From the IMG/VR virus record IMGVR_UViG_3300028534_000009: a stretch of DNA of 41,031 nucleotides. One strand, written 5' to 3'. Source of the stretch: a virus. Under the pieces are notes generated by a model that was not told the DNA's origin, ran no database searches, and saw only the letters and a program-made list of their open reading frames with translations. Both the position numbers and the translations under genes were made by a program. Shown one piece after another: positions 1 to 41,031 of the stretch. How positions within the stretch are numbered: position 1 is the first letter of the stretch; each line of letters begins with the position of its first letter.

Positions 1-127
1 GCATTTAAGGGGACATCGTAAAGAAGGCTGAACATAATTCCGTCTGGTAGGGTAGCAGATGTTAAGACGAATTCTTTTCCTTTAACCCAGAAGTCTTCTG
101 CGTAGTACTGAAACTTGAGCCAGAAGG
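1..127. repeat. Terminal direct repeat copy 1, identical to 40905..41031 (circular assembly overlap or terminal redundancy)
   Basis: Read base by base: gcatttaaggggacatcgtaaagaagg...gagccagaagg occurs at both window ends, 127 nt. Confidence 0.95.
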
Positions 128-890
128 GTTTAAAGTAGAGTTTGTCGTATTTCTCGTCGTAGTAGTAAAACCAGTTGTCCTCCCAGTCTTCTTCAAATGC
201 GTAAAGGTTCTCTATCTTTTTAAGCAGGCTTCTGTAGTAGTTGATGGTCGTAACTTTTCTCTTACCGATGTTGATTTCTTTTTCAAGCTCTGCCAAGCGT
301 TCTTTAACGAAGTCGTAGAGCTTTGGAATGAAGTCAACGAAGTCTTTTATAACGGTTTTTTTAGACGGTCTTTCCTTGAGTGCTTTGGGCAACTTGAGTT
401 CTATACTGAGAAACTTTTCTATCTCAGATAGAAGCTCGTCTGCCTCGTCACAGTAAACATTTCTCTGCCCGTGTTTGTTGAAAAAACTTTCAGGCTTGTT
501 TAAGAAAACCTGATAGTTAACGCAGGATTGCTTGCTTCTAAAAACTCGTTCAACCTGCTTTCTGTAAGCACAGTCCTTGCAGTTAATACGAGGACAATGC
601 TCAACGCTGGGATAGTAGTTCCTAATGCATGGATAGTTAGCTTTTCCCATAAGGATAGGAATCTTGTAGTCTCGGTTAAGTTGTCTTTGAAGGTCTTTAG
701 TAGAGCAAACATACCAGAAAGCGTCGTTATACCAAGCAATAAAAGGACAAAGGCTCTTCCCTGCACCCGTTGGAGCGTTGATTAGCTTCAAAGGTTTCTC
801 GTTGTTAATAATAAAGGAAACGATTTTTTTCTGAGACTTCCTTAGCGTGTACTCTTTGTTGTTTTTTAGTATTACTTTGTCGTTAATCAT
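1..890 (-). CDS. XPD/DinG-family SF2 DNA helicase with 4-Cys Fe-S insert, N-terminal part. The gene crosses the window junction; the C-terminal part is 40280..41031. About 504 aa in total.
   Basis: ATG at 890 follows GGAGGCAAGA. My translation is MINDKVILKNN...NAPTGAGKS (Walker A)...YPCIRNYYPSVEHCPRINCKDCAY (4 Cys)...YCDEADE (motif II)...LTSATL (motif III). It runs in frame through the 127-nt overlap into the 40280..40939 ORF (MFSLLYDVPLNAI...). Confidence 0.8.
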   Translation of the reverse strand, partial: MINDKVILKNNKEYTLRKSQKKIVSFIINNEKPLKLINAPTGAGKSLCPFIAWYNDAFWYVCSTKDLQRQLNRDYKIPILMGKANYPCIRNYYPSVEHCPRINCKDCAYRKQVERVFRSKQSCVNYQVFLNKPESFFNKHGQRNVYCDEADELLSEIEKFLSIELKLPKALKERPSKKTVIKDFVDFIPKLYDFVKERLAELEKEINIGKRKVTTINYYRSLLKKIENLYAFEEDWEDNWFYYYDEKYDKLYFKPFWLKFQYYAEDFWVKGKEFVLTSATLPDGIMFSLLYDVPLN

Positions 891-1192
891 TCTTGCCTCC
901 GCTAATCTTTACTTGCTTCTACCTTTACAACATCCAACATAGCCAAGCAATTCAACACCTTTACTTTATCGTGCACTTGCTGCTCCCCACTGCACCTGTC
1001 CTTCACAATTCAATGTTTTACTGAACCATTCCATTTCTTCTCGGCTCTTAGCCTGTCCCTGCCAAAACTTTACTAAACAGTTGAACACCCAGCTCAACCA
1101 TTGCATCCCATACGGTTCATTGCATTTCCTTAACGCTACTTTTTTACTTAATGCCTTTACTGCACTTGAACTCACATTACTTAACAAAACCA

Positions 1193-1723
1193 TTACAATA
1201 CTTGGCAATTCACCACCCTTGCTCGTCTTATTGCGTTGTAACTTTTTCTAAGAAAGTAAAGCACAAAGTACTTTGCCATTACTCTATCTACAGCAAAAAA
1301 GAAGTTCCAGCCTCTTGCCATAAAAGAAATAATGGAGTTAAGCACGACCCTAAATTTTACATCGTTAATGGAATCAATAAGCAAGTCGTTAAAAGAAATA
1401 CCTTCAATAAGGATAGCCTTACAAATGTAGTTTTTCCCTCTTAACAGCTCTTTTTCAAAGCGTTCTCTGTGGTTAGTAAGGCAGTTTTCAAAGTCGTTTT
1501 GTTTCTTACGTTCTACTGTTATCAGGTTCTCAAGTCCTGCTATGGAGTAGTCACCTACATCAAGTTTTTTCCTAACGATGGATAAGTTCTTGGTACTAGC
1601 AAACAACGGGTCGCTTTCTCTAGTGTCCACTATAAGTGTGAGCTTCTTTTCTTGCCACTTTTGAACTTCTGCTTTAAGTAAAGGCTCTATTTGGTTGCGT
1701 AGGCTTAAGTGCTCTATTATCAT
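1193..1723 (-). CDS. ERCC4/XPF/Mus81-type structure-specific nuclease
   Basis: Contains IVDTRE, LDVGDYSI and ITVERKKQND, which fit the GDXnERKX3D signature of the ERCC4 domain. SD-like GGAGC lies upstream. Confidence 0.75.
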   Translation of the reverse strand: MIIEHLSLRNQIEPLLKAEVQKWQEKKLTLIVDTRESDPLFASTKNLSIVRKKLDVGDYSIAGLENLITVERKKQNDFENCLTNHRERFEKELLRGKNYICKAILIEGISFNDLLIDSINDVKFRVVLNSIISFMARGWNFFFAVDRVMAKYFVLYFLRKSYNAIRRARVVNCQVL

Positions 1724-1764: not shown

Positions 1765-2256
1765 TTAGTCGTTGAAAATATCGTCGTTTAACTCGTCGTC
1801 GTTAACTTCTGGCAATCCGTCTTCTTTCTTAGCAAAGTCAACCTGAGTTACATTCTGGTAAGTCTTTCCGTCTTTTCCTTCAGAACTTTCAAGAAACACT
1901 CTAATAGGACGCCCTGGAAGATACTTCTCGAGCTTTGGATAAAGTTTTTCCCATCTACCGTTGGCAAGGTACTTTTCAGTAAATTCTGAGACAGTCGTTT
2001 CTTTCTGGACTCCCATTTGCTTGTCTGTTCTAGTAATGCCAATAATGGTAGCTAATGCCCTCAAACCACCGTTTGTTTCAGGATTAATAAACATAGAACG
2101 CTCATAAACGAAAGCATCTGCAATGATGCTGAAAACTACACGAATGCGTCTGCCGTACTCGTTTTCGAGAAGCTCCAAGCGTTCAATCTTGGCATCGTGC
2201 CAGCCGTCCTCAAGTCTGCGTCCTCCGAGTACCTTGTCCTTGTCGTCAATAATCAT
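1765..2256 (-). CDS. Putative single-stranded DNA-binding protein with acidic C-terminal tail
   Basis: The C-terminus PEVNDDELNDDIFND resembles the acidic SSB tip. The gene sits next to the Sak4-like and nuclease genes and follows a GGAGGTG SD. Confidence 0.45.
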   Translation of the reverse strand: MIIDDKDKVLGGRRLEDGWHDAKIERLELLENEYGRRIRVVFSIIADAFVYERSMFINPETNGGLRALATIIGITRTDKQMGVQKETTVSEFTEKYLANGRWEKLYPKLEKYLPGRPIRVFLESSEGKDGKTYQNVTQVDFAKKEDGLPEVNDDELNDDIFND

Positions 2257-2369: not shown

Positions 2370-2873
2370 TCACCTCCTTTCTGAGTTATTGAATTCTACA
2401 TAGTTATTTTCAGCTAACCAAATAACCATTTTAGCCAAAGCATTTGCTAAATTATTGTTAATACCTTCAGAAAAAAGAGAAACTGTTAAATTAACAGTAA
2501 TATTTCTTTCATAACTTATAGCACTTTTATTAATGATAAGATAGTAATAAAAAGGATCTTTTCTTAAAGAAGAAGGTAACCATTCTATTAATTCTCTTAC
2601 GGTTGGTGCTTTATATCTATCTATAGTAGTATTAGTTATTTTTACTTTGACATTTGCTTTTTCTAAAACTTGTTCCCATTTTTTAGCTTCTTTTTTTATT
2701 ATTTGTATTTCAGCATAGCTAAAATAAGCTAATTCTTTCTTTTCATAAGAAGTTGAATGTTTTAATTCAAGCCAATACCAACCACCACCATCTTGTGGAT
2801 AGCCAAGCTTTTTTAATTTTTTACATAATTCTAACCTTGGTACTTCTTTATAAATATCAAACATTTTAGACAC
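2370..2873 (-). CDS. Hypothetical protein in an AT-rich island
   Basis: 167-aa ORF, co-directional, overlapping the upstream gene by 8 nt. No motif recognised. Confidence 0.65.
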   Translation of the reverse strand: MSKMFDIYKEVPRLELCKKLKKLGYPQDGGGWYWLELKHSTSYEKKELAYFSYAEIQIIKKEAKKWEQVLEKANVKVKITNTTIDRYKAPTVRELIEWLPSSLRKDPFYYYLIINKSAISYERNITVNLTVSLFSEGINNNLANALAKMVIWLAENNYVEFNNSERR

Positions 2874-3234
2874 CTCTTTTGTAAAGCTCTTTGGCTGTTA
2901 GCTTGTAGAAACCAATGTCGCCTCTTTCGTGCATTCTTATAAGCTCGTCAAAGGTGTAAACTTTGTTTCCTGGTAATTCAAGGTTAATTTCGATTATCAA
3001 AACTTCGTCACTATCCTCGACTTTTACAGTTTCCTTGTTAACTTCAACGGGCAATTTAGTTAAAGCTGCCACTATTTTTGCAGTAGCCTTGTTATCAATC
3101 GCAGACTTAAAGTCAATTTTGCCGAACCACTTGTGCAATGTGTCGTCAAACTCGTCAAAGCCGATTTTGAACAGCTTAATCTTGCACGGGCACATAAACA
3201 TACTTGGGCTTAGTGAGTTAAGTAAGTATTTCAT
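2866..3234 (-). CDS. DUF1874 / STIV B116-like protein
   Basis: The start is trimmed to MKYLLNSLSPSMF (an ATGA overlap with the upstream stop, with GGAGGCTCACA upstream). The pattern YLLNSLSPSM...SAIDNKATAKIV...VKVEDSDEVLIIEINLELPGNKVYTFDELIRMHERGDIGFYKL parallels the B116 family as I recall it. Confidence 0.55.
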   Translation of the reverse strand: MKYLLNSLSPSMFMCPCKIKLFKIGFDEFDDTLHKWFGKIDFKSAIDNKATAKIVAALTKLPVEVNKETVKVEDSDEVLIIEINLELPGNKVYTFDELIRMHERGDIGFYKLTAKELYKRGV

Positions 3235-3509: not shown

Positions 3510-3797
3510 TTACCACCTTTGATTATAAGGTTCATAATATTTACATTTTGCGTTTTTATTTACTAAAGGAAAAACAGTTGTTATTACACTTGCAGTAATT
3601 GAATTATCTTTGTTATCCTTGTCTAATGGATGGATATGTCTGTAACTCCATCCTTCTGCAAATTTATTGTCAGTAAATTCTACTAAATTATTCTTTAAAT
3701 CACTTTTTGTATTTTTGGAACATGCGACCCATTCTTTTACTTCCAAGTCTGCACAAGCTAATCTTGCATAAGTACAAAACAAACAACATTCTTTCAT
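3510..3797 (-). CDS. Hypothetical Cys-rich protein
   Basis: 95-aa ORF with a GGAGG SD. The start overlaps the stop of the Sak4-like gene by 1 nt. Confidence 0.6.
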   Translation of the reverse strand: MKECCLFCTYARLACADLEVKEWVACSKNTKSDLKNNLVEFTDNKFAEGWSYRHIHPLDKDNKDNSITASVITTVFPLVNKNAKCKYYEPYNQRW

Positions 3798-4543
3798 TAC
3801 TTACCTCCTTTAATTACCTTTATTATTTTGCTCAAGTCATAAGGGAAAGCTTTTTTATCCAAGTTAGGTCCAGTCCACTTAGCAACAAAAGTTCCGTCAG
3901 ACTCAAAGTAAACTGCAGGTGGATAAACGACCTTGCCATCTTTAACACGAGGTCTAACCAAACCAATGCAATCAAACCAAGCAGGATAGGATTTGTTAAA
4001 CTTCTCTCCAATGAAATTGGGGGCACAAGCAAGCTCAACATTCCACTTAGGATTGTCTGTAGCAAGAGCAATTCCTACGACATATTTGCCTTGCTTGACA
4101 TAATTTCCCATAAAGGTGGTAATACGATTCATCCAAGAACCGATAGCACCGTAACCAGACAGGTCGGTTCTAACTAGGTTGACGAGTTTTCTCTTAGAAG
4201 TGTCAAACACTTTTGCTTCAGCAGTTTCTTTTTCAATCTCAGTTAAAAGCATAACATTACATAGGTAGGTCATACTGTCAATAACGATGGCCTGGTAATC
4301 TTTAAAGGTGCTGTAGTCTTCCATTGCACGAATAAAGTCCCAAAAGTCTTCAGGCTCAAAGATGTCAATGTTTCTGTCTTTAAGAATGCCAGCTACGAAA
4401 GACAGGTCTCTTGGCTCAAGCATAACATAAGCTACAGGTTCAGGAGCAGTTAGCAAGGTGGTCGTGGTTTTTCCTACTCCCGTGTCTCCGTAGATTAGAA
4501 AACTTATTCCTCTGTTAACTGAAGTGATTTTACTTTTTCTCAT
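3797..4543 (-). CDS. AAA_24 / Sak4-like RecA-type ATPase (recombination mediator)
   Basis: Walker A is LIYGDTGVGKTT and Walker B-like is AIVIDSMT. The size of about 250 aa is typical of Sak4-like proteins. GGAGG SD upstream. Confidence 0.7.
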   Translation of the reverse strand: MRKSKITSVNRGISFLIYGDTGVGKTTTTLLTAPEPVAYVMLEPRDLSFVAGILKDRNIDIFEPEDFWDFIRAMEDYSTFKDYQAIVIDSMTYLCNVMLLTEIEKETAEAKVFDTSKRKLVNLVRTDLSGYGAIGSWMNRITTFMGNYVKQGKYVVGIALATDNPKWNVELACAPNFIGEKFNKSYPAWFDCIGLVRPRVKDGKVVYPPAVYFESDGTFVAKWTGPNLDKKAFPYDLSKIIKVIKGGK

Positions 4544-7268: not shown

Positions 7269-8060
7269 TTATTTGTCAAGTAGAATCTTAGCAAATTTTT
7301 CAAAATTTTCTTGTCTTTTCTCAAAGTAAGGGTGTTCTACTTCAAAGATGTTTTCTATGGTTTGAACGGCTTGGCAAATGGGTTCGTAAAGGCAGGAACT
7401 AAAAGCACAAGCGTAAGACTTCTCAAAGAAACGGTACTTGAGACGGAGTAAGATGGTTTTGTAAAGGACGGTTAGTTTTTGCTCAAGGGCTTCCTTATTG
7501 AATTCGTCACGGTGAAATCTAAAGCCCCAGAGTTCAGAGTTTTTGCGTAAGTAGGGCAAGAATTCACCAGGACGACGCTGTATGCGCTCTATGAGCTTTT
7601 CGAGGTCTTCCTCTTTTTTAGGAGCTTTTCGGTAAACAGGCAAGAGATAAAACCATTCAATATTGGGGAAGAGCAAGGAGTAAAATTCAAGTTGCTCTTT
7701 AGCCCAGGCTTCCATGTAGATAGAGCCTAAAGACTTGGTGGTAAACTTTATTTCTCCTATCCAGCCATCACCAACGATGTCTGCTTTACCTGTTAAAACG
7801 AATCCGTCTCCGTTTTCTCCGATAAATTCTTTAGTAGCTTCTTGCTCGTATTTAACATTATCAGGCAAGACGGATTTAATAAGGTCTCGGTAGGCAATAA
7901 TAAGACGGTTTTCGATGTAAGAGCCTTCGAGGGAACGCATAAGATCAACTCCAAATTGCATTGGATCGGGTAAGATTTGAGGCTCAAACAAGCGTGACAA
8001 GAGAAATTTCATAGGACACTTATAAAAATCTCTTATTGCTGAATAGCTTAATTGCAACAT
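7269..8060 (-). CDS. Cas4-like PD-(D/E)XK exonuclease with Fe-S cluster cysteines
   Basis: The N-terminus is LSYSAIRDFYKCPMKF. GKADIV...GEIKFT fits D...ExK, and EQLEFYSLL fits QxxxY. The C-terminal YACAFSSCLYEPIC gives the 1+3 Cys arrangement typical of Cas4/AddB-type nucleases. Confidence 0.7.
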   Translation of the reverse strand: MLQLSYSAIRDFYKCPMKFLLSRLFEPQILPDPMQFGVDLMRSLEGSYIENRLIIAYRDLIKSVLPDNVKYEQEATKEFIGENGDGFVLTGKADIVGDGWIGEIKFTTKSLGSIYMEAWAKEQLEFYSLLFPNIEWFYLLPVYRKAPKKEEDLEKLIERIQRRPGEFLPYLRKNSELWGFRFHRDEFNKEALEQKLTVLYKTILLRLKYRFFEKSYACAFSSCLYEPICQAVQTIENIFEVEHPYFEKRQENFEKFAKILLDK

Positions 8061-8071
8061 TTTTGCCTCCT

Positions 8072-8365
8072 TTATTCTGATGGTATTATTGCAGTAAAAA
8101 TGTAGTATTTTTGTTCGTTAATAATAAGGATTTTTGTATGTACAGGTTGAAAAATTAAATAAGCTTCAAGTTTTTTGCTTTGTTTTACTTCTTTTTTGAG
8201 TTCTTCTAAATTAACAGATTCAAAAGTTTTAAAATTTCTTATGTTTTTATCAATAGACAAATTTAAAATTTTCATTACAGCTCTTTTATTAAGTTTATAA
8301 AAGCCTTCGTCAATTTTGGTTGCTGTAGTATGTGAGGCTTCTACATACAAATCAACTTTTTTCAT
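8072..8365 (-). CDS. Hypothetical protein in an AT-rich island
   Basis: 97-aa ORF with a GGAGGTAAAAAA SD, overlapping the ferredoxin stop. Confidence 0.6.
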   Translation of the reverse strand: MKKVDLYVEASHTTATKIDEGFYKLNKRAVMKILNLSIDKNIRNFKTFESVNLEELKKEVKQSKKLEAYLIFQPVHTKILIINEQKYYIFTAIIPSE

Positions 8366-8592
8366 TTTTTTACCTCCTTAAATGTGATTGCTTTATTGCT
8401 ACATACCTTTAGACAATTAAGACACTTGACGCACTTATGTTTGAACCATCGAGGTGGATCGTGAAGGTTTGAAATGTGAAGAGCGTCGTGGGGACAGGAG
8501 TCAACGCAGGAAAAACAGCGTATGCATAACGAGTCTTCAATCGTGCGTGTAAAACCCTGAAACTTGTAGTCTTCTTCAGACCAGAAACACAT
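8362..8592 (-). CDS. 2x[4Fe-4S] ferredoxin-type protein
   Basis: Two CxxCxxCxxxC motifs: CIRCFSCVDSCP and CVKCLNCLKVCS. GGAGGTGTCG SD upstream. Confidence 0.8.
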   Translation of the reverse strand: MCFWSEEDYKFQGFTRTIEDSLCIRCFSCVDSCPHDALHISNLHDPPRWFKHKCVKCLNCLKVCSNKAITFKEVKK

Positions 8593-9503: not shown

Positions 9504-9688
9504 TTTCTTCCCTCCTTTTTGATTTTTTTCTTTTTCATTCTACAACTAACATTAACCCAAAACTCCATTTTTGTCAAACTCTAAAATCCACCATTAACAC
9601 TAATTATCCCAACAAAACCAAACCTAAGCTCTATCTTTCTAACTTTTTCGCTATTTTTCACGATTTTTACACCAGCTTCAACCCTTTG

Positions 9689-9716
9689 TTGACTAAGTCA
9701 CTAAAGAAAAGATAGT
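9689..9716 (+). promoter_or_regulatory. Candidate sigma70-type promoter TTGACT-16-GATAGT facing into the non-coding hub
   Basis: It has the same -35 hexamer and 16-nt spacer as the three plus-arm promoters. No ORF follows. A weak hairpin plus T5 lies at 9790-9811. Confidence 0.3.
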
Positions 9717-9900
9717 TGAAGTCTAACTCCTCATTTATCTTTAATTTTCGTGAAACCCGCATTATTTCTGGCTTAGCAGGAATTTTTGAGGCTTAATAAA
9801 GCCACCTTTTTGTAAAAAACAAAGTTCTATTGTAAAAAGATTTCGTTTTATAATAGCAATCGCGCAAACAAGTTTTACAGGGTTTATACTACCTCAAAAA

Positions 9901-10430
9901 TTCCGTGGAACACCGATGAATTCTAGGGTGCACGCTCACGAAAGTCGAGGTGTCTATCGTGTCACTTTTCTAAAATTCGTGTCTCCGTTCTAGCCCGCAT
10001 TATTCCTAGTATTGAGTTCTAATTGTAATTAAGATTCAGTTTCAGTTTAAAGTGGGGAATTTTTACCCAATTCTAGGAAGTGCTGATTACATCTAGGGTG
10101 CACGAAAATCAAAGAAAGTAACACATAATTCTATGGTTACAGTGATTCGTGACACGCTTCCGTGGAACACCGATGGTTCCTTGGATTGAGCTTGGTAATT
10201 CTATTGTTTAGTGAAGAATTTGGTTTAGTTAATTAATGGATAAAGTAGATTTGCTGGGAGCTAGGGCTGGTGCTGGCTAGATGGGAATTTATTTTTGTCA
10301 AGAAAGGCGTGGAACATTTCTCAGTTTTTGGAGCTGGAAGCCGTTCCGTGGAACACGCATAAATGCTGGGTTTCGAGCGCTGTGCGGTCGCCGTGCCTTT
10401 TGACGCCGTGTTACGAACCAGCGTGGAACA
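9901..10430 (+). repeat. Iteron-like array of five same-orientation CGTGGAACA copies
   Basis: Copies start at 9904, 10161, 10308, 10347 and 10422. Those at 9901-9918 and 10158-10175 are identical 18-mers TTCCGTGGAACACCGATG. They are interleaved with TCTAGGGTGCACG (9922, 10092) and CGTG(T/A)CAC (9958, 10148). Confidence 0.85.
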
Positions 10431-11007
10431 CTTCTGGTGGCACGATCCTATCATAACGGAGCGATTGAGACTCAATTGCGGTGTTACTCTTGGTCTGCTT
10501 TTATATTAATGTTGAGCTTAGTTAGTACTTACTTTCGTTTTATTGAATGGGGTTTTGGGTTTTATGGGGTTTTTGTCTTTATTATTTTTTTGTTTTTTCT
10601 TTAATGGGTCTTTCCCTTTATTAATTTTGCTTTACTAGTTTTTGCTTTAAGCGTTTCTGAAATTACCCTCTAATAGCCCCAGATTTGCCCTTATTTGCCT
10701 TTTAACTTTGCGGGCTAATGGTTTATACTTGCCTTAATCTTAAAGGGCCTTATAAGCCAAATTTGAGTCTATTTTCCCCTTTAGCCACCAGACATTTTGT
10801 TTGCACTCGAGCCTTTGATTCTCAGTCGCATTCGCAAAAGCATTCTTGCTCGCTTAAGCATTCTTACCTTGCCTTGATTGAACGCTTTTGATTCTGAGTC
10901 TGAGTCGCAGTCGCCTGGAGCAGGCGTTGGAACTTTGGCTGGCTGATGGATGTGGGCTTCACCTCTCCCCCCCCCAGGAGAATTTTAAACTATGCAAAGA
11001 GGGGTTG

Positions 11008-11058
11008 TTAAGGGGAGAATCCCCTTAAACTTGACTAAATAAAGAAGTAAGCTAAAAT
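11008..11058 (+). promoter_or_regulatory. Promoter P1 (TTGACT 11031-11036, 16-nt spacer, TAAAAT 11053-11058) preceded by the palindrome TTAAGGGG-N5-CCCCTTAA
   Basis: Read directly. It lies 29 nt upstream of the first rightward ORF (11087). Confidence 0.6.
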
Positions 11059-11086
11059 AATAAAAAAGAGCGCGGAGGGGAAGTGT

Positions 11087-11281
11087 ATGTACATAATCAA
11101 GAATCCGAAACTGCTCAGGGCGGTTGACAGGTTGATGCAGGTAGCGAGTGGTGAAGTAAAGCCTCAGCGTGGTAGAGGTGGTTTGGGAAGTGGAAGGTTT
11201 GATGTGTGTGTGGTGGACTTGGAGAAGGGTCGAGTTGGAGTAGAGGATGTGTTGAAGGAGAGAAAAGAGAGGAAGGGGTAA
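11087..11281 (+). CDS. Hypothetical protein (Gly/Arg-rich)
   Basis: 64-aa ORF with a GGAGGGGAAGTGT SD, directly downstream of P1. Confidence 0.55.
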   Translation: MYIIKNPKLLRAVDRLMQVASGEVKPQRGRGGLGSGRFDVCVVDLEKGRVGVEDVLKERKERKG

Positions 11282-11287
11282 GAGGGG

Positions 11288-12841
11288 ATGGATAAGGGGA
11301 GAGAGGTGAAGGAGAAGAAGGTGCGGTTTTTGGCGGACGAGGAGGTGTTATATCTCGTTGAGCAGTGTTTGCATGGTGTTGATGAGAGGCGGAGGTTGTA
11401 CGAGGGTTACTTGCGGGATTACTTAAACAATCGTGAGCAGAACATGATTTATGTGTTTCTCAATGCAGTGTTGTCGCTTATTTATTATCCTGACAATGTG
11501 GTGTTTGACATAAAGGGGAAGTACAGGTTTGCGGATGCGATGGCGGAGGAGTTGAAGACTTCGTTTTATCGTGATGGGCTTGACCTGTGGCTTTATGGTG
11601 TTATCACGCTTGGGTTAGTGCTTGGGTCTGTTATTGTTAAGAGTGTGTGGCGAGATGGTCGTGTTAAGCATATTCTCGTTATGCCTCACAACTTTGGTGT
11701 GTTATACGAGGACATGGATGAGATTGACAGTCGTTCTCAGGTAGTTTGTGAGGTTGCCTATCTCCCTTATCGTGAGGCTGTGTGGAAGTTTGGTGAAGAT
11801 GTGGTGCAGGCTGGAAAGATTGAAGGCGATAAGGGTCTCATTAATGGTGAGGGTTTGCTTGGGATCGTTTTAACTAAGGCTAAGCAGGCGTACCTTGAGC
11901 GTCCTGAGATAACAGGTGAGCCGAATTACGAAGAGATATTACAGCCACATACAGGCGACTATGTAGAGGTTAAGGAACTATGGGTGTACGACTACCATTT
12001 AGAAGACTGGGTTGTTTATCAGGTAATTGGCAGTCAGGTAGTGCGTCGTTTTCGTAATCCTTACTATAAAGGTATTCTCCCTTATTCGAACTTTACTGCT
12101 AACGACATTCCGAACTATTTCTGGGGTCGTTCTGAGATTTACTACTTACGCAACCTTCAAAAGAAGATTGACGAGTACCAGAGGCTCTTTGACGAGAGCA
12201 TAAACCTGCTCAAGAATCCACCTATACTCGTTAACGGGCAGGTAGCTGAAGAGGTAGCCGACGAAATCAAGCAGAAGCTTGTAACACCAGGGGAAATCGT
12301 ACCACTCCCGTTAGTAACGGGAGACATTAAGCCGTACGAAAGCAGGCTTAGTCCTGACATAGTGCTTCAGATATTCCAGAGTTACAAGAACCTTTTTATG
12401 GAAACTTCTGGATTATCTGAGATACTATTGGGGTCTTCCCTTAAAAATGTTCGTTCTGCTAGTCACGCTCAGATACTTGCCAACTTTGCTTCTGCTCCTC
12501 TTAAGCAGAAGGCATTGCGAGTGGAAGCCTTTATCGAACGCTTGATGACCACGCAAGCCTACTACACGATGCTAAACGAACCTAATTTATACGACCCGGA
12601 CGCAGACTTCATCGTCGAGGTTTACGCACACACTAGCTCCCCTATTACGATGATAGCCTACCAGGACATTCTATTCGAGCTAACCAAAGCAGGCTTGCTA
12701 CCCGTTGATGTCCTTATTGATGTACTTCCCATTCCACAAAAAGACCGAATAAAGCAGTACATAGCAATGAAAGAAATGATGGCGATGCAACAAGCCGTCC
12801 AACAGCAACAGCAGCCTCAAACGAAAAAGGAGAAGAAGTGA
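11288..12841 (+). CDS. Putative portal (head-tail connector) protein
   Basis: 517 aa, first large gene of the virion arm, with a Q-rich C-terminus. The size and general sequence character fit a portal. No diagnostic motif was verified. Confidence 0.5.
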   Translation: MDKGREVKEKKVRFLADEEVLYLVEQCLHGVDERRRLYEGYLRDYLNNREQNMIYVFLNAVLSLIYYPDNVVFDIKGKYRFADAMAEELKTSFYRDGLDLWLYGVITLGLVLGSVIVKSVWRDGRVKHILVMPHNFGVLYEDMDEIDSRSQVVCEVAYLPYREAVWKFGEDVVQAGKIEGDKGLINGEGLLGIVLTKAKQAYLERPEITGEPNYEEILQPHTGDYVEVKELWVYDYHLEDWVVYQVIGSQVVRRFRNPYYKGILPYSNFTANDIPNYFWGRSEIYYLRNLQKKIDEYQRLFDESINLLKNPPILVNGQVAEEVADEIKQKLVTPGEIVPLPLVTGDIKPYESRLSPDIVLQIFQSYKNLFMETSGLSEILLGSSLKNVRSASHAQILANFASAPLKQKALRVEAFIERLMTTQAYYTMLNEPNLYDPDADFIVEVYAHTSSPITMIAYQDILFELTKAGLLPVDVLIDVLPIPQKDRIKQYIAMKEMMAMQQAVQQQQQPQTKKEKK

Positions 12842-12955
12842 TTAGCCCAGGAGCCAGCCTCCCCTCCACCCTGCCTCCCTCTTCCAGGTGCCACCTCCTC
12901 TCTGGGCTTCTGGGCACCCATTTCCAACCACCAAGCCACCAACCACCCAAGCAAA
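12842..12955 (+). terminator. C-rich, G-poor tract, a possible rut site / Rho-dependent terminator after the portal gene
   Basis: By hand count about 54 C against 17 G in about 114 nt. It contains the tandem CCAACCACCAAGC / CCAACCACCCAAGC (12924-12952), then a G9 run (12956-12964). Confidence 0.3.
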
Positions 12956-12967
12956 GGGGGGGGGTTG

Positions 12968-13018
12968 ATAAGGGGGTACTCCCCCTTATATTGACTTTTT
13001 CTATTTTTGTGCTATAAA
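12968..13018 (+). promoter_or_regulatory. Promoter P2 (TTGACT 12991-12996, 16-nt spacer, TGcTATAAA to 13018) preceded by the palindrome ATAAGGGGG-N4-CCCCCTTAT
   Basis: Read directly. It is nearly identical to P3 across about 38 nt and has an extended -10 TG. Confidence 0.65.
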
Positions 13019-13154
13019 ACTTAATAAGATGGAAAACAAAGTGAAGCTGGCGATAGAAAGTGGGGTTAAGGCGGAAGGGAAGAATAACAAGGTTTCATGT
13101 GCCAGAGCCGTTGTTTGTGAGAAGACGCAAGAAGTATAACCGAAAGAAGAAAAG

Positions 13155-13265
13155 CCCAGCCCAGCCGAAACTAACTAGGAGGTAGTCGAGATGGCAAGAA
13201 GGAAGCACAGGAAAAAGAAAAGAGGACGCAAGTAACTAACCTCTGATGAGGACGGCTGGGCTGGG
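13155..13265 (+). repeat. Perfect 13-bp GC-rich inverted repeat (CCCAGCCCAGCCG / CGGCTGGGCTGGG) enclosing an SD and a 14-codon ORF
   Basis: The arms at 13155-13167 and 13253-13265 are exact reverse complements. Confidence 0.9.
13191..13235 (+). CDS. Micro-ORF encoding MARRKHRKKKRGRK (14 aa, 11 basic)
   Basis: AGGAGGTAGTCGAG precedes the ATG. The ORF lies inside the 13-bp inverted repeat in the leader of the 13308 operon. Translation is unproven. Confidence 0.35.
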   Translation: MARRKHRKKKRGRK

Positions 13266-13307
13266 TGTTGAAAGTTTAGATAAAAAGCTGAAAAGGAGGT
13301 TTAGCAA

Positions 13308-13898
13308 ATGGCTCATTTTTACATTAGCGACAATCAGCCAGTTAATCCCGTTAGTGGTGATTTTTGGTTTAAGCCTAGTGATAATAAGGTTTACAAGTTT
13401 GACGGTTCAGCGTGGAACGAGTTAGCTGGATTGCCTATTGACTTCAGTACATTATTTTCTGGAACGGTTCCTATTGAAGGGTTGGTATTGGCTTATGCAT
13501 TGCTTGCTGATACTGGATTGCCAAGTGCAGTGAAGGCACACTTTGTTAAGTCTGCTGCTCCTACAGTTGGAACTGGTGGAGTTTACGGTGCAGCGGTTGA
13601 CATTGAGCCTGCTGCTAACAAGTCTATCTTGCCCTTACAAGTCAAGACTTCTACGGCAGGAACTTTTGGTACAGGTGAAACCGTTACTGTTCGTGTTACT
13701 GCTACTTTCAGTGATGGTACTACTGCTTCCGTTACCAAGACTCACAGTGCAGCGGGAGACATCTGGTTTGCAGAGGCAGACCTTGCTGGATTGATGAAAG
13801 ACGGCGCTTACATAACGAAGCTATCTGTTGACGCAACTTCAAGTGCTGCTACTACGGCGGTAATTGCAAGCGTTGATGTGTACGGGTTGCAGGTATAA
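13308..13898 (+). CDS. Fibre- or decoration-like virion protein
   Basis: AAAGGAGGTTTAGCAA SD. The N-terminus is GDFWFKPSDNKVYKFDGSAWNEL, a motif class seen at phage fibre N-termini. The body is Thr/Ala/Val/Gly-rich and beta-like. Confidence 0.5.
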   Translation: MAHFYISDNQPVNPVSGDFWFKPSDNKVYKFDGSAWNELAGLPIDFSTLFSGTVPIEGLVLAYALLADTGLPSAVKAHFVKSAAPTVGTGGVYGAAVDIEPAANKSILPLQVKTSTAGTFGTGETVTVRVTATFSDGTTASVTKTHSAAGDIWFAEADLAGLMKDGAYITKLSVDATSSAATTAVIASVDVYGLQV

Positions 13899-14203
13899 TG
13901 ATTGGGCGTGTATTTTGGGACATAGAGCCGTTATTTGAGAAGGCTGTACCGAAAGTAGTTAAAGAGCTTGTGTGTCCTGTTTGTGGTTTTGGCAACTTTT
14001 TCTTTAAGCACGCACACGCATTCAGGAGAGGAGCAGGGCAGTACAGGGTGGACATAGCGGTTAAGTGTGAAGCGTGTGCATTGGTGTTGCAGTTTGGGGT
14101 GCACATAAGTCAACACGAATACGAGGCTTTGGTTAAAGTTTGGGGCAAGCAAACGCTTGATTACAACGATGTTGGGCACATTAAAATTGAAACAGGAGGT
14201 TAA
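13898..14203 (+). CDS. Zinc-ribbon protein (CPVC...CEAC)
   Basis: 101-aa ORF whose start overlaps the upstream stop (TAATG). Confidence 0.55.
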   Translation: MIGRVFWDIEPLFEKAVPKVVKELVCPVCGFGNFFFKHAHAFRRGAGQYRVDIAVKCEACALVLQFGVHISQHEYEALVKVWGKQTLDYNDVGHIKIETGG

Positions 14204-34391: not shown

Positions 34392-34397
34392 AAATGA

Positions 34398-34470
34398 CAA
34401 GGCGGGCAGGATTCGAACCTGCATCTCTCGGATTTGGAATCCGAGGCTCTACCAATTGAGCTACCGCCTT
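34398..34470 (-). tRNA. tRNA-Trp (anticodon CCA)
   Basis: Folded by hand. Acceptor AAGGCGG/CCGCCTT; D-arm GCTC-AATTGGTA-GAGC; anticodon arm TCGGA-TTCCAAA-TCCGA (U33-CCA-A37); variable loop GAGAT; T-arm GCAGG-TTCGAAT-CCTGC; discriminator G. CCA is not encoded. Confidence 0.9.
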
Positions 34471-34567
34471 AAACCCCCTCCTGTGTTTGTGAGTGGAGAG
34501 GCTGTTCTGGGTTGTAATGGGCATGCCCTTGGGTATAACACGGTGCACCGTGGGAGCTCCAATAATA

Positions 34568-36509: not shown

Positions 36510-37997
36510 TTACATTATTTCTCTTATGCTTGCCTTTATTAAAGCTCTTTGTTTACATCTTGTTATAGCAACAAATGCCATTCTTCTGTTTTCTTCTAAG
36601 TAGGTCAAGTTTTTCTTGTTGCCTAAAGAGTGAACATAAACCACATTGTCAGCTTCTCTTCCCTTGAACTGATGCACCACTCCTACATAAACATTGCCTT
36701 TAACCTTATTGAAACTACCCTGCCAGATTAATAGAGGTACTTGCTTGTACTTCTTCCACAAAGATTGAATCTTTCTATTGCCTATTAATCTTAATCCTTC
36801 TAAGCCGGATTCTTTGTAAACTCTTCTAATAAAGGAAAACAAAGGGTCTTTTTGGACGATAGCTTTAGGAATTTTACCAAGAATTTTTTTACCGAGTTCT
36901 CTGTAGTATTCTGGGTCCAAACGGTTCTTGATAAAGAAAACACGGTCAATGCTGTTGGCAAAAACCGTGAATGCTTCCCAGGGCATCTCTTCTAGGTATA
37001 TCACTTTCTTGGCATACTTCAAGTAAGAGTGCAAACGCTTTGAATAAAAAGGCACACCGTAGCCGTTTTTAACGACGAAACCTTCGTTAAGAAATCTCAA
37101 GCCTAAAGGCACGACTGCTTTGGAATAGTTGACGATAACGAAAGTATCACCTTCTAAAGACACTATTTCAGGAATGATTTCTTTTAAAGAGGTGAAGTAC
37201 TTTATTTCGCCGCCTTCAGTTCCAGTCCAGTCATAGCTAATCCTAACGGTGTTTCTGTTAATGATTTGCTGGCTCAACCTGACGACTTCGTTTGGTACAC
37301 GATAGGACTTGGTGAAAAAGACTATCTTATCGTGCTTGAAAAGGATAAACATTTTAGGGTCTGAGCCGAAGCTGGAAAATATTGCCTGATTGGGGTCTCC
37401 TATTAAAATAGCTCCTTTCCTTGCGTTAATCTTGTTAAAAGCTAAGTGCCACATAATAGGAGTTAAGTCTTGAGCTTCGTCTATTACCAGCCAGTCAACG
37501 GTCTTAGTAGGTACGATGTCTTCAACCATACGATAAAAGAGCTTGTCTACAGGAACATTTCTGATAAACATCTCAGAGGCTTGAATGAAGCGTTTAAGAA
37601 AGTCAAGGTCAATGTCCTTGTAATAAGAAGCTCTTTGAAGAAACACATCTAAAGACACGAAGCTGTTAAAGTACTGCACTAGAAACCTGAAGTAAGTATT
37701 TTCTCTAACGGCATCTCTGATGTTGTCTGGAAGCACTATTTTAAACTCAGCTTCAAGGTAGTTCTTGAGTTTAGCGTAGTCCTGAATTTTGATGTCTTTA
37801 CTAAAGTATTCTCTAAAGGTGTAAGCCCTGACTTCTTCCTGATGAGCTTTAATAACGGTGCTTCTAGTCATTGATAAGAATAACACTTCGTCGTTGGGTT
37901 TGATGTTTGCTATTGGATTGGGTTCTCCTTTAAGGGCTTTTATTATCTGAGTCGTTTTTCCTGATCCAGGGCAACCAACGACTTTGATTACTTGCAT
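36510..37997 (-). CDS. UvrD/Rep/PcrA-like SF1 DNA helicase
   Basis: GCPGSGKTT (motif I), LVIDEAQDL (II), LIGDPNQAIF (III), SYRVPNEV (IV), VHQFKGREADNVV (V) and FVAITRCKQRAL (VI). Confidence 0.85.
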   Translation of the reverse strand: MQVIKVVGCPGSGKTTQIIKALKGEPNPIANIKPNDEVLFLSMTRSTVIKAHQEEVRAYTFREYFSKDIKIQDYAKLKNYLEAEFKIVLPDNIRDAVRENTYFRFLVQYFNSFVSLDVFLQRASYYKDIDLDFLKRFIQASEMFIRNVPVDKLFYRMVEDIVPTKTVDWLVIDEAQDLTPIMWHLAFNKINARKGAILIGDPNQAIFSSFGSDPKMFILFKHDKIVFFTKSYRVPNEVVRLSQQIINRNTVRISYDWTGTEGGEIKYFTSLKEIIPEIVSLEGDTFVIVNYSKAVVPLGLRFLNEGFVVKNGYGVPFYSKRLHSYLKYAKKVIYLEEMPWEAFTVFANSIDRVFFIKNRLDPEYYRELGKKILGKIPKAIVQKDPLFSFIRRVYKESGLEGLRLIGNRKIQSLWKKYKQVPLLIWQGSFNKVKGNVYVGVVHQFKGREADNVVYVHSLGNKKNLTYLEENRRMAFVAITRCKQRALIKASIREIM

Positions 37998-38455
37998 TTT
38001 ATAAGCTCCTTTTGAAGCTCTGCAAATTTTTCTTTCCTGATAACAACATTTTGAACGCTGTGAGTTTTCATAATAGCAAAGTTGTACTTCTCAACCTTTT
38101 CTTTTAGCTTCCTGTTAAGCCTATCAAGTTCAATGTCTGCTATTGGTACTACACCAGTTCCGTTTTTAAGAAAGTGCAAAAAAGTTTCTAAAGACATAAG
38201 CAGGTACTCGTAAGGCATAATCATATAAGCAGTATTTCTCTCAATAGGCTTGAAAAAACACAAAGGGCTTCTATACTTCTTTCCTCTAAACGCAACATCT
38301 CCTATTAACTTTTTACCGTTAGGAAGATACACTACAATATCACCTTTGAATCCTCTTGCATTACCAGAACAGGGAACTCTTTCACACTTGAAGCCAGCCT
38401 GTCTAAATAAGTCTCGAATGTGATACTCGTGGTATTTGTACTTTTTGTTAGGCAT
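37988..38455 (-). CDS. Putative PD-(D/E)XK-fold nuclease (Hjc / archaeal Holliday-junction-resolvase-like N-terminal region)
   Basis: The start is trimmed to MPNKKYKYHEY. HEYHIRDLFRQAGFKCERVPCSGNARGFKGDIVVY resembles E..v...L...GF.v.R...SG....DI of Hjc-type resolvases. The ExK element is not clear. Confidence 0.4.
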   Translation of the reverse strand: MPNKKYKYHEYHIRDLFRQAGFKCERVPCSGNARGFKGDIVVYLPNGKKLIGDVAFRGKKYRSPLCFFKPIERNTAYMIMPYEYLLMSLETFLHFLKNGTGVVPIADIELDRLNRKLKEKVEKYNFAIMKTHSVQNVVIRKEKFAELQKELIKCK

Positions 38456-38865: not shown

Positions 38866-40269
38866 TTATCTAGTTTCTTTTCTCATCTGCTCAAGTATTC
38901 TTCTTATCTCTTTTTCAAGGCTGATAGGAAGAATGTTTTTAAGAGGACAATCCTCAGTAGCTTGAATCTTGTTTAACACTTTCGTTACCAATGTGTCAAC
39001 TTTTGCTATTTTCCACTCTGGAAAGGTTACTATCATTTGTCTTATAATTAATTCCTCGTCGTCTATCAAGCCTTTTTCGATGTCCTCTTTAGTAATTACC
39101 TCTTCCATTCTACCTTCTACTACTTCTTTTTCCTGCTCAGTTAGTGGTCGCTGATAGAAAGTGTCGTCGTTTTCTTTAACCACTTCAAAACCAAGTTTTT
39201 TAACGAGAATGTTTTTAACGATGTAGTCGTTCAAGTACTGCTTGTAAATTTTAAGTGCAGACTGGATAAGCAGGTGAATTGCAACCTCGTTTAGCTTAAC
39301 CTTATCTTCCTCTACCAGCAAAGTAAATATTGCATAACGGAGATTCTCGTAAAAAACTCTTCTATCTCTAGTGAAGTTAGTGGTGCTTTTAATAACGACA
39401 AAGTTCCGAATGATGTTAACATACTCGGGTCTATCGTAGTAATTATTTAGTTTTTCTCTTAAGTTATATTTATCGTAAAGATATTGCCAAAATGCGTAAA
39501 AGTGCCCCTGCTTAAGAAGGACGCCGATGTCAATGCCAGCCCTTGAACAAAAAAGCTGTCTGAACTTAGAGTAGTTTATCATGTCTGCTGGAATTTCTAT
39601 CTTGGTCTTATTCGTGTCTATCAAGAAAGTTAATCCTCTGTGAGAATAGAAGCAGGAGATGTCCCGGATGCCGAGTCGCTCTTCTATTATCTTGTAGCTA
39701 TCTTCTGTTAGATCAAGGTCTTTTAGAATGTCGTGGACATAATTTTCTCTCGTGATGTCGTAGATGGAAGCAAGCTCTCTTTCAGGGTTAATGTAAACGA
39801 TAAGGTAGCAACCTTCACCGTGCTTGGGACAGGTATAGAGCTTGTAGCCGTCACCCTCGTGTATCTCTGAGGAAAGTTTCTCTAATAAAGGAAGTTGAAG
39901 AAAAACCTTGTGACTGAAAACCTTTGGTTTGATTACGATGAACGGGTCAAACAGGTAGCCGTAGCGTTCGATGAGGTTGGGATAGCGTTCAAGCACATCT
40001 GAAAGGTGCATCACTTGAGGCTTCCACAATCCAAACTTTCTTGCTATGATTCTAACCATCTTTTCTGATAAAGGGAAAGAAGGAATACAAATGTAGTAGC
40101 CCCTGTTGGTCTTGTTGGTTCTTTTCTCGTAAGGCTTGATTACTTTGCTCTTGTTAGGGAAAAAGTCTGCTTTAAAGACGAAACAGGTTTTGGTAGGCAA
40201 GTCTTCGTAGTGTGCGTCCAGCATAAACACGGGTTCCTTTTTTGGTGCATTATTTTCTTGTTGCATCAT
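38866..40269 (-). CDS. Large orphan protein (467 aa), a candidate replication initiator or primase by context only
   Basis: The start is trimmed to MMQQENN after AAAGGAGGAATAATG. It lies between the XPD-like helicase gene and the nuclease/UvrD genes. No motif recognised. Confidence 0.6.
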   Translation of the reverse strand: MMQQENNAPKKEPVFMLDAHYEDLPTKTCFVFKADFFPNKSKVIKPYEKRTNKTNRGYYICIPSFPLSEKMVRIIARKFGLWKPQVMHLSDVLERYPNLIERYGYLFDPFIVIKPKVFSHKVFLQLPLLEKLSSEIHEGDGYKLYTCPKHGEGCYLIVYINPERELASIYDITRENYVHDILKDLDLTEDSYKIIEERLGIRDISCFYSHRGLTFLIDTNKTKIEIPADMINYSKFRQLFCSRAGIDIGVLLKQGHFYAFWQYLYDKYNLREKLNNYYDRPEYVNIIRNFVVIKSTTNFTRDRRVFYENLRYAIFTLLVEEDKVKLNEVAIHLLIQSALKIYKQYLNDYIVKNILVKKLGFEVVKENDDTFYQRPLTEQEKEVVEGRMEEVITKEDIEKGLIDDEELIIRQMIVTFPEWKIAKVDTLVTKVLNKIQATEDCPLKNILPISLEKEIRRILEQMRKETR

Positions 40270-40279
40270 TATTCCTCCT

Positions 40280-41031
40280 TTAAATGTCTTTCGTTGAGTT
40301 AAGCAGTTTGACTCGTTGTCTGAACCACAACGGAAAGAAGCTCTTGCGTTGCATGTAGAGTTCATAAGCCCCACCGTCTAACACATAAGTGGTGCAGTAG
40401 TCGTCCTCACTTCTCGTGCCTCTACCAGAACCTTGCACGAGATTGATTGCCTCTAAGTAATTATACCATAACTCCCCTTTCTTACCAAATGCGTAGAGCT
40501 TGGTCGAGGTGTACTTGTCAAGCCCTGGTTTTGGACTCTTGGCAAAAATGATAAACCTGCAAAGGTCTCCTTTAAAGTCAAAGCCTCTCACAACAGCAGG
40601 ACTGATAAGAACAGCGTTCTTGCGTTTCTTGAACTCTCTTAACACATCGTAAACGCTACCGCCTTCGTGAAGAATAACCCTGTCTTTAAATGCCCAAGCA
40701 ATTTTCTTTGCACGATTGTAGCTAACGGAGTGAATAATTCCTCTTTCGTTTGCGTGCTTCTTGAGAATCTTTTCAATAAGAGGAAGAGTAAGTTTGTCAA
40801 AGTAGTGGCTTTCGTTTTGCTTGGTTAAGATAGGCAAAGACTCGAATAACAAGACGGGGCTTCTTTCAGGGTCAAATACGGAAGAGATTTCTAAAGAAGC
40901 AATAGCATTTAAGGGGACATCGTAAAGAAGGCTGAACATAATTCCGTCTGGTAGGGTAGCAGATGTTAAGACGAATTCTTTTCCTTTAACCCAGAAGTCT
41001 TCTGCGTAGTACTGAAACTTGAGCCAGAAGG
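40280..41031 (-). CDS. XPD/DinG-family helicase, C-terminal part (continues from 1..890 across the junction)
   Basis: The ORF is open to the window end. IHSVSYNRAKKI...VLISPAVVRGFDFKGDLCRFIIFAKSPKP...QGSGRGTRSEDDY fits helicase motifs V and VI (QxxGRxxR). The stop is at 40280. Confidence 0.8.
   Translation of the reverse strand, partial: FWLKFQYYAEDFWVKGKEFVLTSATLPDGIMFSLLYDVPLNAIASLEISSVFDPERSPVLLFESLPILTKQNESHYFDKLTLPLIEKILKKHANERGIIHSVSYNRAKKIAWAFKDRVILHEGGSVYDVLREFKKRKNAVLISPAVVRGFDFKGDLCRFIIFAKSPKPGLDKYTSTKLYAFGKKGELWYNYLEAINLVQGSGRGTRSEDDYCTTYVLDGGAYELYMQRKSFFPLWFRQRVKLLNSTKDI
40905..41031. repeat. Terminal direct repeat copy 2, identical to 1..127
   Basis: Read base by base. Confidence 0.95.

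Follow-up and report, generated by a model that had tools for sequence, protein, structure and literature searches.

ERCC4 nucleases are commonly presented as having arisen in archaea and eukaryotes. Among the described members of this family, the nuclease domain of Pyrococcus furiosus Hef (PDB 1j22-1j25) and the short archaeal XPF of Aeropyrum pernix (2bgw/2bhn) have the ERCC4 fold and a catalytic signature of the form D..RE, GDY and ERKx3D, while the canonical XPF/Mus81 architecture adds a C-terminal (HhH)2 domain for dimerisation and DNA binding. Small single-domain forms occur among the ERCC4 endonucleases of Hafunaviridae haloviruses, which are included in PHROG 3490. For helicases of the XPD/DinG family, the described references are archaeal XPD (Thermoplasma Ta0057, 4a15/2vsf) and bacterial DinG (6fwr). 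Here we examine a phage locus in which both families meet: in the IMG/VR virus record IMGVR_UViG_3300028534_000009, a stretch of 41,031 nucleotides that we call the window, a gene for a stand-alone ERCC4 nuclease of the XPF/Mus81/Hef type lies close to a gene for an XPD/DinG-family helicase.

A first-pass annotation of positions 1-1723 had noted this pair, likened it to the logic of Hef and of XPD-XPF, and proposed either gene flow between archaea and bacteria in a hot environment or an undescribed module for fork processing and recombination-dependent replication. Our results show that both homologies are real. The helicase and the nuclease are members of gene families that are already common among bacterial phages and prophages, and the locus is an unusual pairing of known parts; it is neither a new system nor evidence of archaeal gene import. 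As to function, we lean, by a little, towards the view that the pair processes branched DNA in recombination-dependent replication, alongside a recombination operon.

The ERCC4 nuclease

The nuclease gene (1193..1723, minus strand) encodes a protein of 176 amino acids (aa). It is matched by Pfam ERCC4 (PF02732) with 31.7 bits against a cutoff of 24, by PHROG 3490 ('ERCC4-type nuclease') with an E value of 4e-13 and by the NCBIfam Hef nuclease model with an E value of 4.8e-10, the last being a domain-level match to the nuclease part of the model alone. The complete GDXnERKX3D signature reported by the first-pass annotation is present as G57-D-Y59 and E71-R-K73-KQN-D77, preceded by the upstream D..RE element (D33-T-R-E36). 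We retrieved 50 small homologues (about 110-200 aa); 34 of them were aligned, and the invariant columns were D33, T34, R35, E36, G57, D58, Y59, E71, R72, K73, R86 and F89. A profile of the family aligned end to end with the Pyrococcus Hef nuclease domain (1j22; E 1e-16) and also matched the XPF proteins of Aeropyrum (E 4e-9) and human (E 3e-8).

The AlphaFold (AF2) model of the protein has a pLDDT of 92.3 and a pTM of 0.87. When this model was compared with the PDB using Foldseek, all 33 matches with an E value of 0.001 or less were XPF/Mus81/FANCM nucleases or their ERCC1/EME1 partners, and the same was true down to rank 45; the Hef domain and the Aeropyrum XPF were the top structural matches. 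Sequence and model together show that the 176-aa protein is a genuine minimal ERCC4 nuclease domain with a restriction-endonuclease-like fold and all catalytic residues present; it probably acts as a homodimer.

Several features set this protein apart from its described relatives. The (HhH)2 domain of canonical XPF and Mus81 is absent: a single long helix closes the chain at aa 176, and the alignment with Aeropyrum XPF stops short of HhH2. Unlike Hef, the phage nuclease stands alone, with the helicase encoded by a separate gene, and on either side of its core it has an additional helix, one at the N terminus (aa 2-25) and a long one at the C terminus (aa 147-175). The helicase, encoded downstream with a 75-aa open reading frame (ORF) between, is moreover of the XPD/DinG type and not of the Hef/FANCM type. 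The earlier comparison with Hef and with XPD-XPF therefore holds only as a loose analogy, as the helicase of Hef is not XPD-type. In its small single-domain architecture the protein resembles the halovirus endonucleases, to which it is 27-28% identical. In contrast to Hef and archaeal XPF, it falls in a clade of bacterial phages and prophages.

The XPD/DinG-family helicase

The helicase gene wraps around the window ends on the minus strand, running from 890 to 1 and then from 41031 to 40280, and encodes 504 aa. Just the N-terminal 297 residues (1..890, minus strand) fall within positions 1-1723; they include the Walker A motif (APTGAGKS, aa 39-46), a Cys cluster, motif II (DEAD, aa 148-151) and the SAT motif (aa 278-280). 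The C-terminal part (40280..41031, minus strand, of which 40905-41031 duplicates 1-127) contributes a Helicase_C_2 domain (PF13307; E 1.1e-12) and motif VI (QGSGRGTRS, aa 454-462). PHROG 2488 ('DNA helicase') matches the protein with an E value of 3.9e-58. A search of the PDB with the single sequence (phmmer) gave no match, and a family profile was needed for detection. The profile, built from a 21-sequence family alignment, matched over its full length archaeal XPD (E 2e-40 for 9p55 and 4e-40 for 4a15) and E. coli DinG (E 1.2e-33), followed by FANCJ, Rad3, CHL1 and CasDinG.

The phage helicase thus shares with XPD and DinG the superfamily 2 (SF2) motifs I, II and VI, the Helicase_C_2 domain and a Cys cluster placed between motifs Ia and II. 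It differs from them in being shorter and in having DEAD instead of DEAH as motif II. It is a compact, phage-type member of the XPD/DinG (SF2) family, and by analogy with that family it would move 5'->3'.

The first-pass annotation had counted four Cys between Walker A and DEAD. There are eight, although four of them do form a cluster (C88, C99, C104 and C107) with the spacing C-x10-C-x4-C-x2-C. In the family alignment C88 (within NYPC) and C107 occupy nearly invariant or invariant Cys columns, and C99 and C104 lie in a shortened loop. The four family Cys columns align, in the profile alignment, with four Cys of XPD that we take to be the Fe-S ligands of Thermoplasma XPD. Those XPD residues are tens of residues apart, whereas the phage cluster spans only 20. 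By this analogy, and given the short span, the four Cys are a likely but putative binding site for an iron-sulfur (Fe-S) cluster.

Linkage of the two genes

If the two proteins formed a conserved module, their genes would be expected to travel together. We examined 160 ERCC4 loci, which include the best 80 of at least 558 IMG/VR contigs, and a helicase profile search of their flanks found the helicase within 10 kb in a single case, contig L008. In the reverse direction, 68 helicase loci were collected from IMG/VR with a 7-sequence alignment. None has an adjacent ERCC4 gene, and a strong ERCC4 match lies within 8 kb in only two, both of them Hafunaviridae haloviruses in which the two genes are 4 kb apart, on opposite strands and separated by more than 10 genes. 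The haloviruses also differ from the window phage in their hosts, as the latter probably infects a bacterium (Aquificota). Other ERCC4 copies have a UvrD-like helicase as their neighbour or an AAA_24 gene nearby. Clustering of the neighbours at the 160 loci gave recurrent genes for a single-stranded DNA-binding protein (SSB), a primase-type zinc finger (identified by eye) and integrase-like and sigma-like proteins; this clustering is noisy, with spurious ORFs of GC-rich genomes grouped together and few real clusters readable. The ERCC4 family is linked to replication and recombination, whereas an XPD-like helicase next door is a peculiarity of this small lineage. Helicase and nuclease do not form a conserved module, nor do they make up a Hef-like system or one resembling nucleotide excision repair.

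In contig L008 the gene order is PD-(D/E)XK, Sak4, ERCC4 and helicase, and the stop codon of the ERCC4 gene overlaps the start of the helicase gene. The proteins are 29-41% identical to their counterparts in the window. Since the pair has remained adjacent, with overlapping stop and start codons, despite this divergence, we suggest that there has been selection for its co-expression within this lineage. The arrangement in the window is looser: a 75-aa ORF (966..1193, minus strand), whose start overlaps the ERCC4 stop, separates the two genes. This ORF is also called in the two other assemblies of the phage, and no homologue of it was found outside this phage.

Such sparse linkage would be expected if the helicase and the nuclease were independent passengers of a mosaic early operon, brought together by module shuffling and each doing a generic job, the one as a DinG-like repair or anti-R-loop helicase and the other as a debranching nuclease. 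The counts from both sets of loci agree with this explanation, as do the distance and opposite orientation of the genes in the haloviruses, the UvrD-like or AAA_24 neighbours of other ERCC4 copies and the 75-aa ORF that intervenes in the window phage. It is harder to reconcile with contig L008, the only detectably related replication module, which keeps the pair adjacent and the codons overlapping at 29-41% identity. We regard independent passengers as a possible but doubtful explanation.

Proposed role in recombination-dependent replication

Scans with Pfam, PHROGs and NCBIfam matched no ORF of the window to a polymerase, a primase or a DnaB-type replicative helicase, which bears out the earlier remark that no polymerase is recognisable and extends it to a primase. 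Our preferred reading, in which the pair handles branched DNA, would run as follows. The two genes belong to the long minus-strand early operon of a tailed phage whose host is most likely a hot-spring Aquificota bacterium. Their products would work with a Sak4-like annealing ATPase, a probable SSB, a PD-(D/E)XK protein and a UvrD-like helicase. As the phage encodes neither a polymerase nor a primase, its DNA would be copied by host enzymes, with replication primed or rescued from recombination intermediates. The helicase would open forks, D-loops and flaps, and the ERCC4 nuclease would cut the resulting branch points, an activity that would also debranch concatemers before packaging. Both the preference for such substrates and the cooperation of the two proteins are what we infer from family membership and gene context. 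Replication by host enzymes, supported by recombination, is the most economical reading of the gene content. The fork and recombination part of the earlier proposal is thus plausible in view of the operon, while the idea of a conserved module is not borne out by the surveys of ERCC4 and helicase loci.

The partners invoked here are encoded in the same strand orientation. The Sak4-like protein (3797..4543, minus strand; PHROG 124, E 3e-18) is a RecA-fold ATPase of the Sak4/AAA_24 type, a single-strand annealing family. Sak4 proteins are single-strand annealing recombinases that are stimulated by their cognate SSB and are needed for the replication of some phages (PMC5928155, PMC5499656). In the Sak4 and SSB modules of temperate phages such as HK620 and S. 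aureus phages, as in the window, a Sak4-like ATPase of the early operon is followed by a small acidic-tailed protein (PMC5928155, PMC5499656). The window module differs in adding an ERCC4 nuclease and two helicases, and its SSB is a candidate only: this is a 163-aa protein (1765..2256, minus strand) with the acidic C-terminal tail DDELNDDIFND, which may be an SSB-like partner of Sak4. At the corresponding place, L008 encodes a protein that shows weak colinearity with it. The PD-(D/E)XK-like protein (263 aa; 7269..8060, minus strand) has a weak Pfam match and is kept beside Sak4 in L008, and the second helicase is a UvrD/PcrA-like superfamily 1 protein (36510..37997, minus strand). The early operon also encodes MazG.

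A number of points weigh against the preferred reading. The Cys cluster of the helicase is very compact and could bind zinc instead of a 4Fe-4S cluster. A 75-aa ORF lies between the helicase and nuclease genes in the window phage, and the pair is kept in just one other contig (1 of 160 nuclease loci, none of 68 helicase loci), so functional coupling is not required by either family. The phage also encodes a second, weakly Hjc-like nuclease, and this could be the protein that really resolves junctions. Lastly, a 466-aa ORFan immediately downstream of the helicase (38866..40266, minus strand) could be an unrecognised replication protein, which would weaken the case for dependence on host enzymes and recombination.

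This ORFan matched only itself when compared by HMMER with 1.84 billion representative proteins, and it had no Pfam, PHROG, NCBIfam, PADLOC or PDB match. A single-sequence AlphaFold model was unusable (pLDDT 37.5). BLASTP of the ORFan against the primase-polymerase (Prim-Pol) protein of Hydrogenobaculum phage 1 (HP1) and against the gene downstream of the L008 helicase gave nothing. The two L008 ORFs that follow the helicase (12178-13431 and 13400-13957) encode, as judged by eye, a PHP-domain-like protein and a sigma-factor-like protein, of which the former has no Pfam match; no ORFan occupies this position.

In a more radical version of the preferred reading, the phage would have given up a dedicated initiator, primase, replicative helicase and polymerase altogether, functions that its relatives do have (Prim-Pol/DUF927 in HP1, DUF927-PolA in the PolA-encoding Aquificae viruses). 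Replication would then both start and continue purely from intermediates generated by recombination or nucleases, with the ERCC4 nuclease and the helicase as a dedicated two-protein machine for processing forks or D-loops and the 466-aa ORFan supplying a new replication function. We consider this unlikely.

Distribution and origin of the two families

The relatives of the phage nuclease are numerous. They were found in at least 558 IMG/VR viral contigs, with identities reaching 41%, and in 161 stretches of bacterial or archaeal reference genomes, of which the 80 listed are all from Bacteria (Desulfobacterota, Verrucomicrobiota, Planctomycetota, Acidobacteriota, Clostridia and Sorangium). The pattern used for the search was derived from the phage nuclease's own clade and would under-sample distant archaeal forms. 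Many of the relatives come from bacterial lineages not known as thermophiles. The closest, at 35-41% identity, are IMG/VR viral contigs and bacterial genomes, and archaeal XPF was barely detectable by a single-sequence search. The isolated viruses with a match are limited to 25 haloarchaeal tailed viruses (27-28% identity); searching viral proteins by structure adds EP364R-type proteins of giant viruses. The nearest relatives of the nuclease are, as judged by these comparisons, bacterial phages and prophages. The helicase family was found in 496 phage records at about 25% identity, including Ackermannviridae, Bacillus phage G, jumbo phages, haloviruses and one Methanobacteriales virus.

The first-pass annotation had argued that, if these proteins belonged to ordinary bacterial phage families, the motif matches would be coincidental. 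The families are indeed ordinary, because both have PHROG entries (2488 and 3490), yet the matches are not coincidental.

A recent transfer of the helicase, ERCC4, Hjc-like and B116-like genes from archaea or archaeal viruses sharing the hot spring is very unlikely in the light of this distribution. The best solved-structure matches are archaeal (XPD, Hef and Aeropyrum XPF), the isolated viruses matched by the nuclease are haloarchaeal and the habitat is probably geothermal, all of which would fit such a transfer. However, the nearest nuclease sequences are viral and bacterial and are closer than those of the haloviruses, and the 80 listed genome stretches are all from Bacteria. The helicase has no single-sequence match in the PDB, and its relatives, at about 25-31% identity, are spread across phages of many bacteria. 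The archaeal bias of the PDB matches reflects which proteins were crystallised. The gene for the B116-like protein belongs to DUF1874, the AcrIII-1 family of anti-CRISPR ring nucleases, which is documented in bacteriophages including HP1 (bioRxiv 10.1101/778746); although membership of the STIV_B116-like family was correctly recognised before, the protein is no marker of archaeal replication. The 'archaeal flavour' of the genome thus comes mostly from which proteins have solved structures and not from the origin of its genes, and gene flow from archaea to bacteria is not needed.

Least probable of all is that the pair serves in host takeover or counter-defence, for example in degrading host DNA or acting against DNA-targeting defences: the helicase matches the PADLOC CasDinG model (E 1.7e-36) and an AcrIII-1-family gene lies in the same operon, but the CasDinG match stems from shared DinG ancestry, the ERCC4 protein has no PADLOC match and the neighbours are recombination and replication genes. 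A reading of the locus as a defence system was rejected as well, as PADLOC gave generic DinG/UvrD family matches and nothing for the nuclease.

The locus thus belongs to a large single-domain ERCC4 family in bacterial phages and prophages, which is relevant to the evolution of XPF and Mus81 and offers a minimal model without (HhH)2. We searched the literature and found no biochemical study of the single-domain ERCC4 family of bacterial phages. For biochemical work, a thermophilic copy of the nuclease together with the compact XPD-like helicase would offer both convenience and stability.

The B116-like and Hjc-like proteins

Two further proteins had been cited as archaeal in character. The first (2866..3234, minus strand) is a DUF1874/STIV B116-like protein of the AcrIII-1 family (PF08960, E 4.2e-12), with matches in the PDB to 2x4i (E 1.5e-7), 6scf and 2j85. 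It shares the DUF1874 domain with the ring nucleases SIRV1 gp29 and STIV B116 but differs in the residues equivalent to the catalytic His47 and to Arg85 and Glu88 of SIRV1 gp29, where it has Asn, Glu and Gly; all three are retained in the homologue of HP1. We assume that Arg85 and Glu88 are the loop residues of AcrIII-1. Structure 6scf carries Ala at the His47 position (SIRV1 gp29 numbering). On these substitutions, the phage protein may be an inactive ring nuclease or one that only binds cyclic tetra-adenylate (cA4).

The likeness of the second protein (37988..38455, minus strand) to Hjc is weak, with sub-threshold matches to PHROG 6591 (E 7.5e-4) and to PDB 7bgs ('Holliday junction resolvase'; E 0.3-0.8), which is presumably the resolvase of a Thermus phage. 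Residues E10 and D39 align, and the E-x-K positions read D53-V-A55, with Ala at the position of the catalytic lysine. A single homologue, 46% identical, was found among 5.8 billion clustered proteins, in a PolA-encoding contig (L168/L169), and it too has Ala at this position.

Host and habitat

The hot environment assumed by the first-pass annotation fits our results. The large terminase (TerL) shares 36.6% identity, in an alignment covering 99% of its length, with its counterpart in HP1, a phage from an Icelandic hot spring. HP1 also has counterparts of two tail proteins, the DUF1874 protein and a 256-aa protein. For three genes, which encode the Hjc-like protein, a small ferredoxin and a 167-aa protein, the closest or sole relatives lie on one contig that encodes a UDG/PolA protein. 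A family-A polymerase is a hallmark of hot-spring Aquificae viruses, and those that encode PolA carry DUF927-PolA (PMC7689252). The host of the phage is most likely a hot-spring Aquificota bacterium and the setting is probably geothermal.

The ferredoxin-like protein (2x[4Fe-4S], 76 aa; 8362-8592, minus strand) is 58% identical to an ORF at L168 6700-6885, which lies directly after the Hjc-like gene in the UDG/PolA contig.

In HP1 an unannotated 907-aa protein (L007 11771-14494) is a fusion of Prim-Pol and DUF927. As the window phage has its Sak4/ERCC4/helicase set where HP1 has Prim-Pol/DUF927, we suggest that replication modules have been swapped between related phages.

Genome organization

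Comparison of the window ends showed that bases 1-127 are identical to bases 40905-41031; the contig is therefore circular, and the window holds the whole circular phage genome (40,904 bp) together with 127 bp of overlap at its ends. Independent assemblies of this phage were present in two further samples, and no match was obtained when the first 25 kb of the window were compared with phage genomes by megablast. The genes form two blocks. A plus-strand block for structure and lysis (approximately 11.3-34.4 kb) encodes a weakly portal-like protein, the major head protein, tail proteins, a Peptidase_M15_3 endolysin and the large terminase, while the minus-strand early block, which contains both the helicase and the ERCC4 nuclease genes, runs from approximately 9.5 kb to position 1 and then from 41031 to approximately 34.6 kb.

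The bacterial character of the genome was confirmed: a strong AGGAGG-type Shine-Dalgarno motif lies 5' of 36 of the 52 ORFs and the endolysin matches Peptidase_M15_3 with an E value of 2.3e-18, both consistent with a bacterial host. Within positions 1-2600, promoter- and terminator-like sites were no commoner than in shuffled sequence.

The two divergent blocks are separated by 1.8 kb (9504-11287) with few ORFs and a higher GC content. In this region TTCCGTGGAACAC... recurs in four or five dispersed copies, at 9746, 9901, 10158, 10344 and 10422 (spacing 155-261 nt), and the repeat-bearing stretch may be an origin or an operator array. Directly after the stop codon of the large terminase gene lies a tRNA-Trp gene (anticodon CCA; 34396-34471, minus strand), the sole RNA-family match in the genome.

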